Below, one piece after another: positions 1 to 9,563 of a DNA stretch of 64,000 nucleotides. The notes beneath the pieces were generated by a model. It was not told the DNA's origin. It made no database searches and saw nothing but the letters and a program-made list of their open reading frames with translations. A program made the position numbers and the translations under genes. The stretch's first letter is position 1, and every line of letters starts with the position of its first letter. The stretch spans positions 488 through 64,487 of the IMG/VR virus record IMGVR_UViG_2778261179_000006; one strand, written 5' to 3'. The DNA is from a virus. Taxonomy: Duplodnaviria > Heunggongvirae > Uroviricota > Caudoviricetes.

Positions 1-342
1 ATGAAAGGCTATTTGCTGCCAGCGGCGCTGCCACAGCTCTTCACGTTGCTTGTATGCTTCCAGCTCTGTTCTAAGGCGTGCTAGCTCCACCTGTAGCTGT
101 TCGGCCTCTTTGGTTGCTTGTTCTTTTGTTTTAACCAAGCCACCTGACAATGCTCTTTTGGCGTTGTCATAGGCTGCTTTAATTTCTGATTTTGCTTGAA
201 GTGATTGGCGACTAAACCCGAAACGCTCTTCCAGCACTGCCCAAGTTAACTTGGAGCCAAGCTCGCCCATAGCCCAGCGATCTAAATCAGCAACAATGGT
301 ATTGATATCACTATCCGACATACGTCTGAAACGCTTAGCCAT
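1..342 (-). CDS. Hypothetical protein, start at 342, 3' end beyond window edge; fourth gene of the recombinase operon (possible recombination auxiliary protein)
   Basis: ATG (complement) at 340-342 lies 2 bp after the stop of the 669-aa recombinase gene; open frame continues to position 1; manual translation MAKRFRRMSDSDINTIVADLDRW... with predicted coiled-coil. Not in ORF track because it has no stop in the window. Confidence 0.35.
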   Translation of the reverse strand, partial: MAKRFRRMSDSDINTIVADLDRWAMGELGSKLTWAVLEERFGFSRQSLQAKSEIKAAYDNAKRALSGGLVKTKEQATKEAEQLQVELARLRTELEAYKQREELWQRRWQQIAFH

Positions 343-2344
343 GTTTCACCTCTATTAGATATTGCTCAGGGTCAAAATGCTCAACCCCATTGTCCGCTAA
401 TTGGGTTTTTAGGGTTTTAAGTTTTTTATCATTGTGCGCAAGCCAGTCGGCACTTTTCTTTGGCTTTTGACTACTCATTTGCTGCTCAGCGTTTTTGCGA
501 GCAATTGCCGTGAGTGCATATTGCCGTTTTAGGTCTTCCAATCGACCAGCGTCGCCTTTTGCCCACACATAGTCCTTGCAGTCTGCTGAACATTGCAAAT
601 GGCGCTCACAAGGTGTTTGCGAGAAATTATGGATACAAATACCAGTACCGACATCATGCACCGCCTGTACCCTTGCTTTGAGGAAAACATCCTGAACATC
701 AACCGGAATCGCTTGAATCTGCTCTGCTATTTGCCCACCGACGAGTCCTTTCTTTATGTCTTGGCGCAGCATAAGCGCTCGCTTTTCTCGTGACGTATGC
801 TGATACGCTTTTGTGTCTCGTGAATTCGTCCTACCAAACCATTCCGTCTGCAGTAGATCACTCAAACCGCCTTCATCAAGCAAGGTATTGAGTGTGTGTC
901 GAAAATGGTGACTGGTGAAATCCACCTCGACACTAGCAGATGCATATTCCGCCGCGAGGTCAGGGAAATAGCGAAGGAATGTCGAAAACATTGACTGGCT
1001 GCAACTGGTCGCAAGCCAATGAGCATAAGTGCCACTCGAAAGGCCGAGTGGACGGAGGAAAAGTAAATCTTTCAGGTAATATTCTTTACCGAATTGATCG
1101 GTATGAATGGCCGAGAGACAGGCACCCGAAAAATCACGGGCACAGTACTTTTTCAAACCTTCCTTATTCGTGAAATGAATGGGGTTTCGTGGGCGTTGCC
1201 CTTGTTTGGTTCGCGCATCGACGTCTGGCCAAGCTAGGTTTTGTTTACGAAGCCAACCCGTTGACGTTAATCCTGTATCACTAATCCCTAATTCCTTTAT
1301 ATCGCTAGCATAGAGCCGCTGTTCACTCGGAATTTGCTCCAAAAAGCGTAAATCCGGCCCACGTGTTTTATGCATCTCTTCTGCCGTCTCGCGAGCCGCA
1401 GCGGTGAGATCTGCTAATTCATTGAGCACTTCTTCAACGATAGGTTTCACCTCTGATGGTAGGTACAATTTGCGTTTCGGAGTGAATACATCTCCTCGAC
1501 TTGTTTTACGCGGGAAGTACTCGATATAACCGTTCCCTTCGTCATCAACAGACAGTGTTTGATTTGGTAAAAGTGAAACCTCACTAAACCGTCGCCCCGT
1601 GCACGCAAGCAAAGTCAATAACAAAACATACAGCCGGTATTTATGAATTTTCGGTACATTTTGATAAAGCTCTCCCATTACACGGAATACTTTTGGATCA
1701 ACCAATTTGTCCGATTTGGTCTCAATAACCTCTGGATCATCAAGCCGCTTGTGGCTTAAACCGTCCGTGCTCGCTGGGCGCTTCATTCGCGCGTATTTAA
1801 ATTGCAACAGAACCCGGCACAAGCCGTTGGCATCGCAATGCGCTGCGAACTCTGCAATATGTTTATGGAGGTTATATGCGGTCGCCTCGCGGTAATGTTT
1901 TGAAATTAACGCGCATGCATTATCAAGTGCTTCGGGAGTCAGGTTGAGTAGTTTCTGACCCAATTGAGTTGCAGCCGCGGCAACATAACCGACTGCTGTT
2001 ATGAAGTTACGCTGATTGGGCGTTGACTGATGTTTTCTATGAAATCTTAAAACGAATAACGCCTTACACACTTCACCCCAACTATCCACTAGAGACTCGG
2101 CGCCTAATTTTGGTGATAAGGTAAAGACAAAAGACGCTGCTTTGATATTTTTTCCAGTCAGCTTCACAAGTCTGCCAGATGTTATCTTCCAATTCGATTC
2201 ATGCCATTTAACCGACTCGAAACCATCTAACTTCAAAAGCTGGGCTTTGCTGACTAGGGCTTGTAAATTTGCATTCCGATCGCGTTCTAAACGATCAATA
2301 AAGGGAATAACTTTGGCTCTGCGTTGCGAGCGACCATCAGACAT
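335..2344 (-). CDS. Tyrosine recombinase, large (669 aa), third of three tandem recombinase-fold genes (IntB-like)
   Basis: ORF track; HHFRHTLNT (HxxR-type) motif and downstream Tyr-containing segment typical of the phage-integrase catalytic domain; start overlaps the stop of the upstream gene. Confidence 0.7.
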   Translation of the reverse strand: MSDGRSQRRAKVIPFIDRLERDRNANLQALVSKAQLLKLDGFESVKWHESNWKITSGRLVKLTGKNIKAASFVFTLSPKLGAESLVDSWGEVCKALFVLRFHRKHQSTPNQRNFITAVGYVAAAATQLGQKLLNLTPEALDNACALISKHYREATAYNLHKHIAEFAAHCDANGLCRVLLQFKYARMKRPASTDGLSHKRLDDPEVIETKSDKLVDPKVFRVMGELYQNVPKIHKYRLYVLLLTLLACTGRRFSEVSLLPNQTLSVDDEGNGYIEYFPRKTSRGDVFTPKRKLYLPSEVKPIVEEVLNELADLTAAARETAEEMHKTRGPDLRFLEQIPSEQRLYASDIKELGISDTGLTSTGWLRKQNLAWPDVDARTKQGQRPRNPIHFTNKEGLKKYCARDFSGACLSAIHTDQFGKEYYLKDLLFLRPLGLSSGTYAHWLATSCSQSMFSTFLRYFPDLAAEYASASVEVDFTSHHFRHTLNTLLDEGGLSDLLQTEWFGRTNSRDTKAYQHTSREKRALMLRQDIKKGLVGGQIAEQIQAIPVDVQDVFLKARVQAVHDVGTGICIHNFSQTPCERHLQCSADCKDYVWAKGDAGRLEDLKRQYALTAIARKNAEQQMSSQKPKKSADWLAHNDKKLKTLKTQLADNGVEHFDPEQYLIEVKHG

Positions 2345-3935
2345 TCTCTTGGCCCTCTTCGCAGATTTTCACAACTTGTGCTACCGCCGATATCACTTCG
2401 TCGAGTTGAATCCCTAGGCGAGCATTTTCGTATTTTTCAAGTCGCTCTGTCCGACTCGCCAATAGGCAATCCAACACCTGCTCATGATCGGCATGTCGAT
2501 AGGGCTGAAATTTAGGGCATAAATAGCAAGAGTATGGTGGGTCGAGGTGGCAAACGCTAGATTCTCCACAAACGCCGATATCGGACTGTACCGTCGGATT
2601 TTGTTCGTCAACAAAGATTAGGTGTTTGTCGTCACGATCACCATTGACAGCCTCAATATCGCTATCGACTACTTTACCTTTGAAAAAGTTTAGGTAATTA
2701 GACAAGGCTTTTGTGGTTGCCTTATCAAGGTGCTCAACAATTCTGCCAGCCATTTCAAAATAAACCTGCACATGCTGGGTATCGGTATGATCGAGAATCC
2801 TCGCCAGCTCACGCTTGCTAATTCCCTCAACTGCTAACCCTGTCGCAAGCGTATACCGCAGTCTTCGGGGGGTAACGTGCATCAATTCACCGGTAAGTGG
2901 GGAAATTAGATTGTGTCGTTTGATAAAGCCTCTGATGAGATTAGCTATACCTGTCGACATCATATTGAAGGCGTCATCCCAACGCTTCGACTCTAATGCA
3001 TAAGAATTTTCGGTTGGTTTAATAAACAAAGGTCTCTCGATTTCTCTAACACTTCCATCAGCATCAACCACTAGCTTTTTATGTTGCGAAGCGTTGATAA
3101 GCGCCACTAGGTGTTTGGCAATATCCGGTTCCAAATATTCATCCACCATATCGTCTCTTGGCGCTAGTTGCCTCTTTTTAATTCTGGGCATTCGTAAAAT
3201 ATAGCAAGGTGAATCGGAATCAGGCGTCAGGTTAATTAAGTCCGTTTCTTTTAGAAAAGTTAGGTTAGCTGGATTTCTTCCGAAAGCAATTGAAAGAGCT
3301 ATAGCCGCCTTCTGTTGCAGGTGCTCATACTCCATACTGTTGTCTTGCTTTAACGTATTGATTATGAGTTGAAGCTCAAGAGTTCTATGAAGAGGTCCTC
3401 TATCAGGATCTTCTTGTCTAACTGCCTCCCCTTTTGGATTTCCCGGAATTTCCATCGCTTCTAACTCGTGAGCATAAATCTCCGAAAACCCAAATTCTGG
3501 GTAGTTTTCCGCGCACCAAATATACCACTGTATTGGTCTATACAATGCCCAAAGGCGGTGCCTTTTACGAGCTTCATTTATTGCGGCTTCCATCACCGCA
3601 ATTAAACGTAATTCAAGATCATCAATGGAAAGATCGGAGACGAGGGAATAATCGGTCTGTTTCGAGAAAATTGCGGCAGATATATCACTCCAATATTGCA
3701 CTCCAGCGTGCGATGACACTCGCGTCGCTTGATCAATAATACAGCTTTTTACTACAACTTTAAGAGTGCCGCTTTGGATGCGAGAGAAGTCGAGCCGACT
3801 GTGTCGATATAGCAAGGGCAACACCCAAACATCTCCAGCACTCTCAACCTTAACACCCTCACGAGTAAAAAAAGTATCAGGTAAATTCAGCCTAGAATCA
3901 TTATTATCTCTAGCTTGTTGAAGCAACTGGTTCAT
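2337..3935 (-). CDS. Tyrosine-recombinase-fold protein (532 aa), middle gene of the trio (Tfp/TnpB-like)
   Basis: ORF track; C-terminal RRLRYTLATG ... HTDTQHVQVY segment resembles a recombinase catalytic region; overlaps neighbours by 4-8 bp (operon). Confidence 0.6.
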   Translation of the reverse strand: MNQLLQQARDNNDSRLNLPDTFFTREGVKVESAGDVWVLPLLYRHSRLDFSRIQSGTLKVVVKSCIIDQATRVSSHAGVQYWSDISAAIFSKQTDYSLVSDLSIDDLELRLIAVMEAAINEARKRHRLWALYRPIQWYIWCAENYPEFGFSEIYAHELEAMEIPGNPKGEAVRQEDPDRGPLHRTLELQLIINTLKQDNSMEYEHLQQKAAIALSIAFGRNPANLTFLKETDLINLTPDSDSPCYILRMPRIKKRQLAPRDDMVDEYLEPDIAKHLVALINASQHKKLVVDADGSVREIERPLFIKPTENSYALESKRWDDAFNMMSTGIANLIRGFIKRHNLISPLTGELMHVTPRRLRYTLATGLAVEGISKRELARILDHTDTQHVQVYFEMAGRIVEHLDKATTKALSNYLNFFKGKVVDSDIEAVNGDRDDKHLIFVDEQNPTVQSDIGVCGESSVCHLDPPYSCYLCPKFQPYRHADHEQVLDCLLASRTERLEKYENARLGIQLDEVISAVAQVVKICEEGQENV

Positions 3936-5113
3936 CTATCGCTTCCCATTGTCAGTTTCTTTTGGTAATCAGATAATGCTTGCCGAGCCCGATCTTCAAT
4001 TTCTTGAGCAATATAAACCGTTTGAGACTCTAAACTTGAGTCGCCACGTAACATTGCCAAAGCTTGCTTTCTACGGTCCTCTTCAAGACCTGCCTCTCGC
4101 AATGCCCTTTCCATTCGAGTCGAGAATGTATGCCGCAATGCTTTCGGAGTCAGTATTTCTGGCAAGTAGTCCGGATATGCACTCCTTAGACGAGTAAAAA
4201 GTTGTGTCAGTGATGAATGGGACAACGGGTTGCCTTCATCACTTAAGATCAAATAATCACTAGATTTACTCGATTTAGATTCTAGGCTCTCCCTCATTTC
4301 GACAATGTATCTGTCTAACATCCGTAGAAAGTGGCTACCCTCAAGCGGCAATACTCGACCACTGCGCTTAACACTGGGTCTGGGCCTTCTCTCGTCATTT
4401 GGATCGGGTGGTCTTCGTTGAATAGTTACCGACGAAATTGCCCCAATATTAATATCTTCAACCCGAAGACTAAGAAGCTCCCCTGGACGGAGTCCACAGT
4501 TAAGCATCAATGATACTGCGACAAAGTTTCGATACTTAATCGGCTCGTAAAAAGCGAAAGAGTCAGCGCTCTCAGGGTTGAGACAATTAACTAAGAATCT
4601 GGCTTCATCCTCTGTCAAAGCTTTTCGGCTAATACCAGCACTCTTTGGACTATTAATAAAACCTTTCTCAATCCACGCGATGATTCGCTTTCTAGACTCT
4701 TGTATCGAGTCATACTGGCTATCATTCGATGGTAGAGACGACAAATAGACATCAATCTCCCAGACGAAATACTGGCGTATTGTGGCTAATCGACTATTAA
4801 ACGTATGCGGGGCAACAACCTTGCTTTCGATCTCCATGTCTTTTCTCAAAAACTCTAGCAAGCTTCCTCTAAATTCAGCTTCCGAGAAAAGCGCACCGTT
4901 TTTTAGTCTCGAGTGCATGTCGATCCGATGAACGTTGAACCATCGATACAAAACAGACAGCTCACGAAGGTTTCTAATGAGGGTATTTGTGCTTAAGTTT
5001 CGTCTTCCCATCACAAACTCGTTAGGAGACGGGATTGGTAAACCATCATCATCTAGAAGTATTGGTAATAGATCACCAGAACTGTGTACAACGGTTTCAA
5101 CTCTCACAAACAC
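3932..5113 (-). CDS. Tyrosine recombinase / integrase (393 aa), first gene of the trio (IntA/TnpA-like)
   Basis: ORF track; LRHTFSTR (HxxR) motif and C-terminal Tyr region; 4-bp overlap with downstream gene. Confidence 0.7.
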   Translation of the reverse strand: MFVRVETVVHSSGDLLPILLDDDGLPIPSPNEFVMGRRNLSTNTLIRNLRELSVLYRWFNVHRIDMHSRLKNGALFSEAEFRGSLLEFLRKDMEIESKVVAPHTFNSRLATIRQYFVWEIDVYLSSLPSNDSQYDSIQESRKRIIAWIEKGFINSPKSAGISRKALTEDEARFLVNCLNPESADSFAFYEPIKYRNFVAVSLMLNCGLRPGELLSLRVEDINIGAISSVTIQRRPPDPNDERRPRPSVKRSGRVLPLEGSHFLRMLDRYIVEMRESLESKSSKSSDYLILSDEGNPLSHSSLTQLFTRLRSAYPDYLPEILTPKALRHTFSTRMERALREAGLEEDRRKQALAMLRGDSSLESQTVYIAQEIEDRARQALSDYQKKLTMGSDR

Positions 5114-5204
5114 CCCTTTGTTTACACTTTAGTCACCAAAGAACTTTTATATTTACATTTAATTTTATAAGCGAACTTTTATAATTACACAACCTTCGGA
5201 CAAT

Positions 5205-5246
5205 AAAAAGCCCTCTTTTAACTTTACAGAAAAAAGAGGGCTCGAA
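5205..5246. terminator. Hairpin terminator downstream of ssb (10-bp stem AGCCCTCTTT / AAAGAGGGCT, A/T runs both sides)
   Basis: Inverted repeat at 5209-5218 and 5233-5242 read directly from sequence. Confidence 0.6.
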
Positions 5247-5325
5247 TGCTTATAACACACTAATTTAATTGGTTATTTATTTAGATAAATCTGTAAATAA
5301 ATTTACATTTAAATATTTATCAGGG

Positions 5326-5814
5326 CTAAAACGGAATATCGTCGTCAAAGTCCATTGGAGGTTCGTTATTGGCGTTGCTCTGAGGTTTACCGCCACCACT
5401 GTATTGCTGGTGGTTTTGAGGTTGGTTTGATTGCCCCCAGCCATTTGAGGACTGTGAATCGTCACGGCGAGCGCCTATCATTTGCATGGTGCCGCCCTGG
5501 CTGACGATAATTTCCGTCGTGTAACGTTCTACACCGGCGTCATCTGTCCACTTACGGGTTTTAAGTTTCCCTTCGATGTAGACCTGAGAACCTTTTCGTA
5601 AATATTCACTCGCAATTTCAGCAAGTTTTCCGAACAAAACGACTTTATGCCATTCTGTTTGCTCTTTCTGTTGGCCCGTTTGCTTGTCGCGCCATGATTC
5701 ATTCGTTGCGATGCTGAGTATTCCGACCGCTCCGCCATTTGGTATATACCTGATCTCCGGGTCTTGCCCCAGGGTACCAATCAGGATGACTTTGTTTACA
5801 CCGCGTTGTGCCAC
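5326..5814 (-). CDS. ssb: Single-stranded DNA-binding protein
   Basis: 162 aa; OB-fold N-terminus, Gly/Gln-rich tail and acidic C-terminus DFDDDIPF typical of SSB. Confidence 0.95.
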
Positions 5815-5833
5815 TTATCTTACCTAATAAAAT

Positions 5834-5850
5834 AAATTAATTAGAGCAAT
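5834..5850 (-). promoter_or_regulatory. C1 repressor operator (16/17 match to ATTGCTCTAATAAATTT) upstream of ssb
   Basis: Reverse complement reads ATTGCTCTAATTAATTT. Confidence 0.6.
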
Positions 5851-5983
5851 AATGTATATCTTTGAAACGTAGCTAACAAGTGATTTGCATTATCCTGTGC
5901 CTTCTAAAGGGATCGAGTCAGTCGGTATTGGCTGTGAATGGGTGTTTGTCCTGGAGCGTAAAAAATTCGCTTATGAGGTCTTT

Positions 5984-6541
5984 ATGAAGGGAAAAACAGC
6001 CGCAGGGGGCGGTGCAATTTGCGCTATCGCGGTGATGATTACCATCGTGATGGGTAATGGCAATGTGCGAACCAACCAGGCGGGGCTTGAGCTGATTGGT
6101 AACGCTGAAGGTTGCCGACGTGATCCATACATGTGCCCGGCAGGGGTATGGACTGACGGGATCGGTAATACACACGGGGTAACGCCGGGTGTGCGAAAAA
6201 CAGACCAGCAAATCGCCGCTGATTGGGAAAAGAATATCCTGATCGCTGAACGCTGTATTAACCAGCACTTCCGGGGCAAAGACATGCCCGATAATTCCTT
6301 CAGTGCAATGACAAGCGCGGCATTCAATATGGGATGCAATAACTTACGGACCTACTACAGCAAAGCGCGAGGCATGCGAGTAGAAACGTCCATCCACAAG
6401 TGGGCGCAGAAAGGGGAATGGGTGAATATGTGTAACCATCTCCCTGATTTCGTGAACAGTAACGGCGTCCCCCTGCCCGGGTTAAAGATTCGCCGTGAAG
6501 AAGAACGCCAGCTTTGCCTGACGGGACTGGTCAATGAATAA
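5984..6541 (+). CDS. lyz: Endolysin with N-terminal signal-anchor-release (SAR) domain (Lyz)
   Basis: Translation from internal Met MKGKTAAGGGAICAIAVMITIVMG... matches my recollection of P1 Lyz (185 aa); lysozyme-like body. Confidence 0.93.
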   Translation: MKGKTAAGGGAICAIAVMITIVMGNGNVRTNQAGLELIGNAEGCRRDPYMCPAGVWTDGIGNTHGVTPGVRKTDQQIAADWEKNILIAERCINQHFRGKDMPDNSFSAMTSAAFNMGCNNLRTYYSKARGMRVETSIHKWAQKGEWVNMCNHLPDFVNSNGVPLPGLKIRREEERQLCLTGLVNE

Positions 6542-6785
6542 ACTCCGGCAGCTCCGCAGACTTTCGACAATGAAGTTATCGCTGGCGGCGATAGTTTTCG
6601 ACTCGATTTTCATGGCCGTATATGTGCTCAATGAGACGTGGCCACTGGAACCGCTCTTGTATGCCGGGCTTAGGCTGTGCCTGACATTTTTGAGCATGGC
6701 CGCGAGATTGATGCAGCAGAAAGAAACCGCTTCAGATTGTCCACGCCGCGCGGTGCGCAAATATATGGCACGCAGACGAAGGTGA
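6534..6785 (+). CDS. Hypothetical small protein (83 aa) overlapping lyz stop
   Basis: ORF track; hydrophobic segment and basic C-terminus; followed by a terminator hairpin. Could be non-coding. Confidence 0.3.
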   Translation: MNKLRQLRRLSTMKLSLAAIVFDSIFMAVYVLNETWPLEPLLYAGLRLCLTFLSMAARLMQQKETASDCPRRAVRKYMARRRR

Positions 6786-6800
6786 TAATAGTTAACGAGA

Positions 6801-6828
6801 ACCCCGGCAGCCGCCGGGGTTATTTTTG
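6801..6828 (+). terminator. Rho-independent terminator (ACCCCGGC-AGCC-GCCGGGGT then T-run)
   Basis: GC-rich hairpin followed by TATTTTT. Confidence 0.65.
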
Positions 6829-6832
6829 GTGG

Positions 6833-9563
<2,731 letters not shown>

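Follow-up and report, generated by a model that had tools for sequence, protein, structure and literature searches.

Genomic islands that have three integrases (GInts), also called elements of the Tn6488 or Tn6571 type, are the closest described relatives of the DNA discussed here, namely positions 1-5328 of a 64,000-nt stretch (the window) that covers positions 488 to 64,487 of the IMG/VR virus record IMGVR_UViG_2778261179_000006. According to sections of Bardaji 2017 (PMC5385486), GInts are composed of a ginABCD operon, all four genes of which are essential, followed by cargo and a short far end; they have imperfect flanking repeats and use 6-nt staggered cuts. Among the 11 gin operons looked at in detail there, which come from different species, 6 are located at the end of ssb. 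GInts have been passed on horizontally, as their phylogeny shows, yet have no transfer functions of their own, and in the relevant passages the discoverers call the route unknown. The part of Hochhauser 2023 dealing with E. coli hotspot #39, which is the yjcB-ssb interval, reports GInts with defence systems there, the site being occupied in 38 of 1,292 genomes. The two other systems that resemble this locus are the integrative elements that circularize in a strand-biased way (SEs) and Tn554; GInts are sister to the SEs, and one nomenclature puts ginABCD elements in the "Tn554 family". Excerpts from Idola 2023 state that GInt and SE proteins form separate sequence clusters and differ in gene order, and that SEs are found in 0.3% of Escherichia replicons and GInts in 7.5%. 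The GInt kind, its chromosomal ssb location and its defence cargo in E. coli are therefore already published, and the element in the window is a new member in a new context rather than a new kind.

We read positions 1-5328 as the ginA-proximal end of a GInt, integrated site-specifically into a P1-type phage-plasmid, at the 3' end of its ssb, with a probability of about 0.9. The program-made list of minus-strand open reading frames (ORFs) contains three consecutive overlapping genes coding for 393, 532 and 669 amino acids (aa), with exactly the coordinates given in a preliminary description of this DNA (Table 1). That description also had a small fourth ORF running off the window, which is indeed there, starting 2 bp after gene 3, which is not the case: the ATG at 342-340 overlaps the stop of gene 3 (ATGGCTAA). 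The four minus-strand gin genes adjoin ssb and are translationally coupled, with successive overlaps of 4, 8 and 8 nt. The complete fourth gene, read from identical copies elsewhere, has 477 nt and encodes 158 aa. Three consecutive integrase-like genes plus a small fourth, co-oriented and coupled at one end of the element, make up the GInt layout. The assignment is supported by Additional file 10 of Idola 2023, where the PSI-BLAST-derived ginC-ginD blocks, the part of the file used here, list WP_001469675.1 as GinC and WP_001565354.1 as GinD. Both are encoded, by genes 3 and 4, in an allele 99.3% identical to the window's part, and they are 99% identical to the window's own. All four proteins match only their positional counterparts in two other ssb-targeting GInt lineages, at 24-28% identity (27% for GinD), with zero cross-hits.

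The end of the element was found by aligning unrelated replicons and reference P1. In an alignment of the window with L001, a chromosomal copy, and L002, a copy on an F-like plasmid, the common sequence ends at 5328, within the stop codon of three unrelated ssb genes, and homology to reference P1 starts at the same position. The junction had earlier been placed near 5114-5204; given that every full-length megablast match reached 5300, the end has to lie to the right of this interval, and the element includes the TAG of ssb. An insertion hot spot where P1 carries IS1 had also been suggested. The IS1 of P1 is ~1 kb away, between isaA and isaB, and the element sits exactly at the ssb stop codon because the conserved ssb 3' end is the target on chromosomes, plasmids and phage-plasmids alike.

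In reference P1 the junction between ssb and isaA is unbroken and has a single hexamer (ACACATTCA-AAACGG-AATATCGTC, continuing AATATC after the hexamer), so that the element is an insertion relative to P1, as originally proposed. The near junction in the window reads ...ATCAGGGCTA-AAACGG-AATATCGTC, the far junction in the occupied P1-type plasmid L003 reads ACACATTCA-GAACGG-TAGTTCACAT..., and the empty site in K-12 reads ...ACAAATCA-GAACGG-AATGTC. Occupied sites have the hexamer [A/G]AA[C/T]GG at each of their two junctions, and the empty sites of P1 and K-12 have it a single time, so that the event is a simple insertion in which a 6-bp core is duplicated. The terminal motifs and target duplication for which a search had been recommended are found as 13-bp inverted repeats and the duplicated hexamer. 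The ssb coding sequence is unaltered by the insertion; only its stop is swapped, from TGA to TAG, the new stop being the last 3 bp of the terminal repeat. Two further observations were made on these sites. Site H155, thought to be empty, held another GInt, and K-12 served as the empty reference. In E. coli Z1323CEC0014 (L026:475-490) the distal end starts with AAGTTCAC instead of TAGTTCAC, and the element is 18,555 bp, 1 bp longer; the changed base is the base that follows the hexamer in the chromosomal target, which could reflect an occasional 7-bp exchange or mere mutation.

Table 1. Features of the GInt end and its target gene, in window coordinates.
Feature	Position	Strand	Description
ginD, 5' part	1..342	-	Small coiled-coil auxiliary protein, cut by the window edge; identical in L001 as the 158-aa WP_001119047.1
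ginC	335..2344	-	669 aa, large tyrosine-recombinase-fold protein with C-terminal Cys/His cluster
ginB	2337..3935	-	532 aa, tyrosine recombinase with C-terminal Cys-rich cluster
ginA	3932..5113	-	393 aa (RefSeq start 5107, 391 aa), ordinary-sized tyrosine recombinase
ginA-proximal non-coding end	5114..5328	-	26% GC; no differences up to 5328 between chromosomal, IncF and P1-type copies
Direct repeat TTAAATGTAAAT in proximal end	5301-5312 and 5151-5162		
Direct repeat TATAAAAGTTC in proximal end	5173-5183 and 5141-5151		
Terminator-like hairpin and U-run	5201..5243	-	12-bp stem 5208-5243; element-supplied, behind the invaded ssb
Terminal 13-bp imperfect inverted repeat TTTATCAGGGCTA	5316..5328	.	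Inward TAGCCCTGATAAA; 9/13 positions match the distal end TAGTTCACATAAA
6-bp crossover (overlap) hexamer AAACGG	5329..5334	.	Equals CCGTTT, the Pro-Phe codons of the SSB tail
ssb of P1-type phage-plasmid, target gene	5326..5814	-	162 aa, C-terminus ...DFDDDIPF

The hairpin in the proximal end folds at -20.9 kcal/mol (z = -4.6), and 0 of 200 shuffled sequences fold as well. A consensus scan of 5000-5950 for promoters and terminators gave nothing, the hairpin being missed because of its long loop, and an Rfam scan of 1-7000 also gave nothing. An analogous hairpin is present in other GInt lineages. The distal non-coding end, which is off-window here, is ~290 bp in relatives and only mildly AT-rich, at 38% GC.

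The same DNA occurs on several kinds of replicon. Of 5,426 complete E. coli genomes, 20 have the same 5.3 kb, at identities of 99.1-100%; the pattern is not due to chance. A megablast search with window 1-5300 matched 4 plasmids and gave zero matches among 50,697 phage records, and nothing matched in a close-pattern scan of the viral contigs in IMG/VR. An allele of 18,554 bp, 99.3% identical to the window's part, occupies five sites, on replicons of three types, with 0 mismatches between them. Three of the sites are in strain AF43 (UK, human), one on its chromosome and one on each of two different IncF plasmids; the other two are in strain Z1323CEC0011 (Korea, chicken), on its chromosome and on a P1-type plasmid. 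One cell therefore holds three identical copies and another holds two. Identical copies on three replicon types show recent mobility only. The 5,328 bp of the window differ from this allele at 38 positions, and have 0 mismatches to chromosomal copies in four other strains. A third P1-type plasmid, L016, has a decayed copy of the window's allele, which points to at least two acquisitions by plasmids of this type.

Plasmid-borne GInts of other lineages are located in the same way, directly behind the ssb of IncF plasmids (L018, L019, pEQ011), IncC plasmids (pCFR-0b27, pMyNCGM74) and one P. aeruginosa plasmid. All 10 of the other plasmid-borne GInts inspected are at the plasmid's own ssb; in L016 the ssb 3' end has been lost to IS1. 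GinC matches at ~34% identity, the same level as for the pEQ011 lineage, are found on ~30 further E. coli and Salmonella plasmids. The GInt of pEQ011 (IncF; L028/L020) carries Avs4/AbiGi, and the same AbiGi (WP_001272932.1) is present at the chromosomal yjcB-ssb of strain 4/2-1. A contig with 100%-identical gin genes and an E. coli-identical ssb tail (L030) is binned as a metagenome-assembled genome of an uncultured Collinsella sp.; this actinobacterial assignment is almost certainly a binning error.

The preference for ssb extends across the family. A survey of GinC loci, in which one genome per species was scanned, found 43 loci, from Enterobacterales to Psychrobacter, Burkholderiales and Oligoflexia. 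At 29 of the 43, and at 29 of the ~33 that have enough upstream sequence, an ssb ending ...DDIPF has its stop 195-226 bp upstream of ginA. In the surveyed loci the hexamer is the host's own Pro-Phe codons (CCGTTC, CCGTTT, CCATTT, CCTTTC and others), and the stop codon is element-derived. On the AF43 chromosome (L006:1373-6607) the GInt at ssb has another, of a different kind, in tandem directly behind it, with proteins of 415, 519, 677 and 139 aa and a cargo that includes Drt3a; GInt arrays can build up in this way, because each insertion regenerates an ssb-tail-like site. In L031 and L032 (Aliidiomarina and Pseudomonas sp.) GinC is 94% identical to the window's, GinA is only ~51% identical and the proximal end differs (TGA/ATGACATAAAG), so that GInt lineages appear to swap modules, perhaps via recombination within tandem arrays. 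Thorsellia anophelis DSM 18579 has four GinC loci (L038, L039, L041, L070), of which L070 is beside ssb and L039 is not, the other two being on contigs that are short upstream; this suggests tandem arrays or secondary sites.

Comparison of the hexamers at the two ends bears on how the element moves. In all copies the ginA-proximal hexamer is the target's own, GAACGG on the chromosome and IncF plasmids and AAACGG on P1. At the distal end the hexamer varies, and does so without regard to the sequence of the element: it is GAACGG in the P1-type copy L003, in the IncF copies and in two chromosomes, AAACGG in at least seven chromosomes, and AAATGG in two chromosomes. The distal hexamer is the footprint of an earlier donor site. 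The distal GAACGG of L003 was therefore brought in from a chromosomal or IncF-type donor. In Z1323CEC0011 the chromosomal copy is distal A/proximal G and the P1-type plasmid copy is distal G/proximal A, a reciprocal pattern of the kind expected from exchange between both replicons. The hexamers agree with the fingerprint/footprint rule of SEs and Tn554 and with the 6-nt overlap of GInts, on few independent events. The likeness to Tn554 seen in the preliminary description stands for the mechanism, namely the 6-bp carry-over, and fails for the genes, given that Tn554 has two recombinases and not three. Tracing the chromosomal AAACGG footprints to P1 specifically was considered and rejected, because other ssb genes also end in CCGTTT.

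Recombination takes place within the 6-bp overlap, formed by the Pro and Phe codons of the ...DDDIPF tip, which is universally conserved in SSB. The three recombinase-fold proteins, with complete candidate active sites, would assemble together with the coiled-coil GinD on both element ends and on the ssb-tail half-site. The element would leave as a circle with the junction TTTATCAGGGCTA-hexamer-TAGTTCACATAAA, carrying the hexamer of the ginA-proximal side, and could then recombine with any ssb tail. A second copy of the hexamer, in its donor-derived version, would be expected at the off-window distal junction of the window's element, where the distal end TAGTTCACATAAACTAGCG... should come after the hexamer and P1 sequence ...TTTACACATTCA. 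Conjugative plasmids and P1-type phage-plasmids may be the vehicles; the island would be able to hop onto them because they carry their own ssb, and would be carried to new cells.

A mechanistic rival to a strand-biased process is a lambda-like cut-and-paste, with two sequential strand exchanges across the 6-bp overlap, in which the footprints arise by heteroduplex segregation and neither strand bias nor replication is involved. This is possible, at rather less than even odds. Sections of Bardaji 2017 (PMC5385486) can be cited on both sides: attI hexamers of both kinds were present 50:50 after excision of pGInt0, and empty sites were seen in some hosts, as cut-and-paste would have it, while some GInts yielded no empty site, which argues against it. 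Also in favour of cut-and-paste, the number of independent informative events is only ~3, for which the chance of all pointing in the same direction is ~1 in 8. On the other hand, every informative copy combines a native proximal hexamer with a foreign distal hexamer, and the three identical copies in one cell and two in another are not what cut-and-paste would lead one to expect.

A broader scheme can be put together from these points, which we offer tentatively, as something a little short of an even bet. The ssb tail would be a landing pad common to chromosomes, P1-type phage-plasmids and conjugative plasmids (IncC, and IncF, whose ssb region adjoins psiB/psiA). An island that lacks transfer genes could shuttle by way of it, leaving one chromosome on a vehicle and entering a new one, and this would explain how GInts spread. 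The distal hexamer would log the donors, and its one-sidedness suggests SE-like strand-biased (copy-out) recombination in GInts. The ssb gene is under SOS control in the chromosome, is expressed early after conjugative entry in IncF plasmids, and is controlled by C1 in P1. The gin operon is co-oriented behind ssb, and any of these controls could tie expression of the gin genes to stress, to the entry of a plasmid or to the induction of a prophage; transcription running on from ssb would first have to get past the terminator hairpin that the element itself brings. Each of the conserved half-sites, which are the two element ends and the ssb tail, might be served by a different one of the three catalytically complete Gin proteins.

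The cargo lies outside the window. Intact relatives of ~18.5 kb carry a type I restriction-modification (R-M) system and two GmrSD-like nucleases. In the intact copy of the window's own allele (L023, 18,534 bp) there are a YopA-like protein, a small helix-turn-helix protein, HsdM, HsdS and HsdR, together with two DUF262/GmrSD-type nucleases and an M48 peptidase. The R-M system and the nucleases are carried by copies with a core 100% identical to the window, so that the earlier expectation of defence genes beyond the edge is probably right, and a type I R-M system with two GmrSD-like nucleases is the most likely cargo here. Relatives with an identical core have variable cargo straight after ginD. 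IS1-flanked mrk fimbrial genes have been added in some copies, and in others mrk or an exopolysaccharide cluster replaces part of the cargo. Thus IS1-flanked mrkABCDF (type 3 fimbriae) lies within the GInt cargo of chromosomes A29 and EC2001 (L001:9898-19559; L022:926-8785). On the P1-type plasmid CP061756 (L016:16276-23571) a deletion caused by the same IS1-mrk unit has removed ginA, ginB, part of ginC and the phage ssb 3' end. Strains A15 and KE55 (L025:6359-23616; L027:3095-20352) have most of the R-M cargo swapped for a ~16-kb IS1-flanked polysaccharide-synthesis cluster containing glycosyltransferases, GumC-like and galE. In E. coli 2273-PO3 (L017:7954-9333) both element ends only are left, around IS1, at the chromosomal ssb, 1,380 bp in total; the ginA-proximal stub is equivalent to window 4996-5300 (305 bp), and the distal hexamer is AAATGG (CCATTT type), so that its earlier donor would have been yet another kind of ssb.

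Such IS1-mediated decay, common in relatives (L016 and L017, with cargo replaced in L022, L025 and L027), raises the question of whether the window copy is itself an immobile remnant, truncated or rearranged past the window edge, where its distal part lies. We consider this unlikely. All four visible ORFs are intact, as are ssb and the junction, and the chromosomal copies to which 1-5328 shows 0 mismatches include the intact one of 18,534 bp.

The preliminary description saw tyrosine-recombinase motifs in all three large proteins. For GinA this is confirmed by PF00589 (Phage_integrase; 58 bits, E 1.3e-15, above the Pfam cut-off of 27.1), the sole full-length Pfam match of the three. GinB and GinC match the same family below this cut-off (24.8 and 21 bits), and only in the C-terminal catalytic part, so that for these two the support comes from invariant catalytic-type residues. 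GinB also has a strong yet sub-threshold match to the NCBIfam site-specific integrase NF041502 (E 1e-80), and a marginal PDB alignment to the archaeal XerC-like tyrosine recombinase 4a8e across the RxxR...H...Y region. Residue invariance was judged in alignments of 37-42 sequences that include distant lineages (for GinC 41 sequences, some only 24% identical). The invariant candidate catalytic residues are R209, K249, R327, H328 and Y367 in GinA; R220, K253, R357, R360, H383 and Y392 in GinB; and R252, K280, H479, R482, W502 and Y514 in GinC. GinA has no Cys/His cluster. GinB has C456, C462, C470 and C473, to which H484 is added in one listing, and GinC has C570, H572, C579, C585 and C589. These C-terminal clusters look like zinc-binding modules, judging by their residues; the passages considered from three GInt/SE papers make no mention of them.

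GinC belongs to a length-conserved family with 59-100% identity across many genera. Sequence and profile searches of the PDB with GinC gave nothing useful. Its AlphaFold2 model has a predicted local distance difference test (pLDDT) score of 72.8, and the top 39 PDB matches of the model are all tyrosine recombinases (XerH, Cre, lambda Int, XerD), although weak, with a best E of 1e-3 and template modelling (TM) scores of 0.1-0.3. The placement of the GinC active site is only a candidate one, because the model is of low confidence exactly at residues 473-520, the HxxR...Y segment. For GinD, no Pfam family scored above its cut-off.

These residues also help to decide between a GInt and an SE. The preliminary description compared the operon with intA-tfp-intB-srap of SEs; the size series and the four-gene layout do agree, and it could be added that the 6-bp footprint rule, with the proximal hexamer from the target and the distal one from the donor, is the rule described for SEs, and that several copies per cell fit copy-out behaviour. 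That the element is an SE is nonetheless very improbable. By the portion of the published clusters considered, genes 3 and 4 fall into the GinC and GinD clusters, apart from Tfp and Srap, so that the order is ginA-ginB-ginC-ginD. The second protein keeps R220, K253, R360, H383 and Y392, besides R357, where Tfp is without a catalytic motif, and SEs are rare in Escherichia, as noted above. SE membership was rejected on the catalytic second protein and on the listing in the GinC/GinD rather than the Tfp/Srap set. Three other assignments were also rejected: Tn554, on the three recombinase-fold genes and the ssb target (judged by gene count and target); a recombinase in trio (RIT), on the unequal sizes of 393/532/669 aa, the single full-length Pfam match and the presence of a fourth gene; and a GMT island (GmtY/Z/X), on a score of 30.3 bits against the NF040693 GmtY cut-off of 340. 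Finally, the idea that the trio is a native recombination module of the P1-type phage lineage and not an insertion, to which its location between conserved P1 genes and its co-orientation with ssb might lend colour, is dismissed by the empty site in reference P1, by the 344 P1-type plasmid records that share the backbone beside the insert, only two of which carry the element (so that the same genes are not present in all P1-like phages), by a tblastn search of the 50,697 phage records that found no GinC homologue in any deposited phage genome, and by the occurrence of the same DNA at chromosomal and IncF ssb genes.

Several points tell against the GInt assignment or against movement by way of P1. 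Relatedness to the prototype GInt-PstDSM4166 is indirect, resting on the published PSI-BLAST list and on the architecture. The window ends inside ginD, which puts the distal end and the cargo outside the view, and with them whether this copy is intact, and another P1-type plasmid (L016) has a decayed copy. Excision, circle formation and transfer are predicted steps. The donor of an AAACGG footprint need not be P1, given that CCGTTT is also the ending of many other ssb genes. With the insert, intact P1-type plasmids come to ~110 kb, which may reach or exceed the headful capacity of the P1 capsid, making virion-mediated transfer uncertain. Last, the GinC in the window keeps a full candidate R-K-H-R-W-Y set, contrary to the published descriptions, parts of which call GinC catalytically degenerate, with the first Arg missing (Bardaji 2017, PMC5385486) or RHRY lacking (Idola 2023).

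What the locus adds is the exact att anatomy, evidence for very recent traffic between chromosome, conjugative plasmid and phage-plasmid, and the hexamer footprints. The 18,554-bp zero-mismatch allele across chromosomal, two IncF and one P1-type ssb sites seems to be unreported, as do the distal hexamer as the footprint of an earlier donor, the location of plasmid-borne GInts at the plasmid's ssb, and phage genomes without a GinC homologue. A 2020 paper reportedly describes Tn6571 on Pseudomonas plasmids, so that plasmid association may not be wholly unreported. A testable route for GInt spread is hitch-hiking on any replicon that brings its own ssb. The route is made concrete by zero-mismatch copies from two continents, donor-site footprints, and other lineages behind the ssb of IncF, IncC and Pseudomonas plasmids. 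GInts bear defence systems, toxin clusters and resistance genes, and phage-plasmids and conjugative plasmids could in this way bring restriction or defence islands straight to a new host's chromosome. For annotation, ssb 3' ends on any replicon are worth checking for GInt islands.

Compared with known systems, the element has in common with Tn554 (tnpA, tnpB, tnpC; staphylococci) a highly specific target and a 6-bp core carried from the donor site. It differs in having three recombinase-fold proteins rather than two, in its host, that of Tn554 being Gram-positive, and in its target, which for Tn554 is att554 and not ssb. With SEs, as portrayed in parts of PMC10214605 (Mob DNA 2023), it shares a similar size series, the absence of transfer genes, few target sites, chromosomal and conjugative plasmid locations, and a target hexamer that ends up beside the intA-proximal end with the donor hexamer beside the distal end. 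SEs differ in that the second protein is the non-catalytic Tfp, here replaced by a protein with a full catalytic set, and in their separate protein clusters, host ranges and targets. The agreement is closest with GInts (PMC5385486): an operon of four genes at one end, followed by cargo and by a far end that is short and non-coding; imperfect flanking direct repeats; a 6-nt overlap swapped between element and target; favoured insertion at the ssb end with SSB unaltered; and, from the hotspot section of Hochhauser 2023, defence cargo at E. coli yjcB-ssb. In contrast to the GInts of those accounts, as far as the parts considered go, the host replicon here is a P1-type phage-plasmid (in relatives, IncF and IncC plasmids), GinC has a full candidate catalytic set, and GinB and GinC have C-terminal Cys/His clusters.

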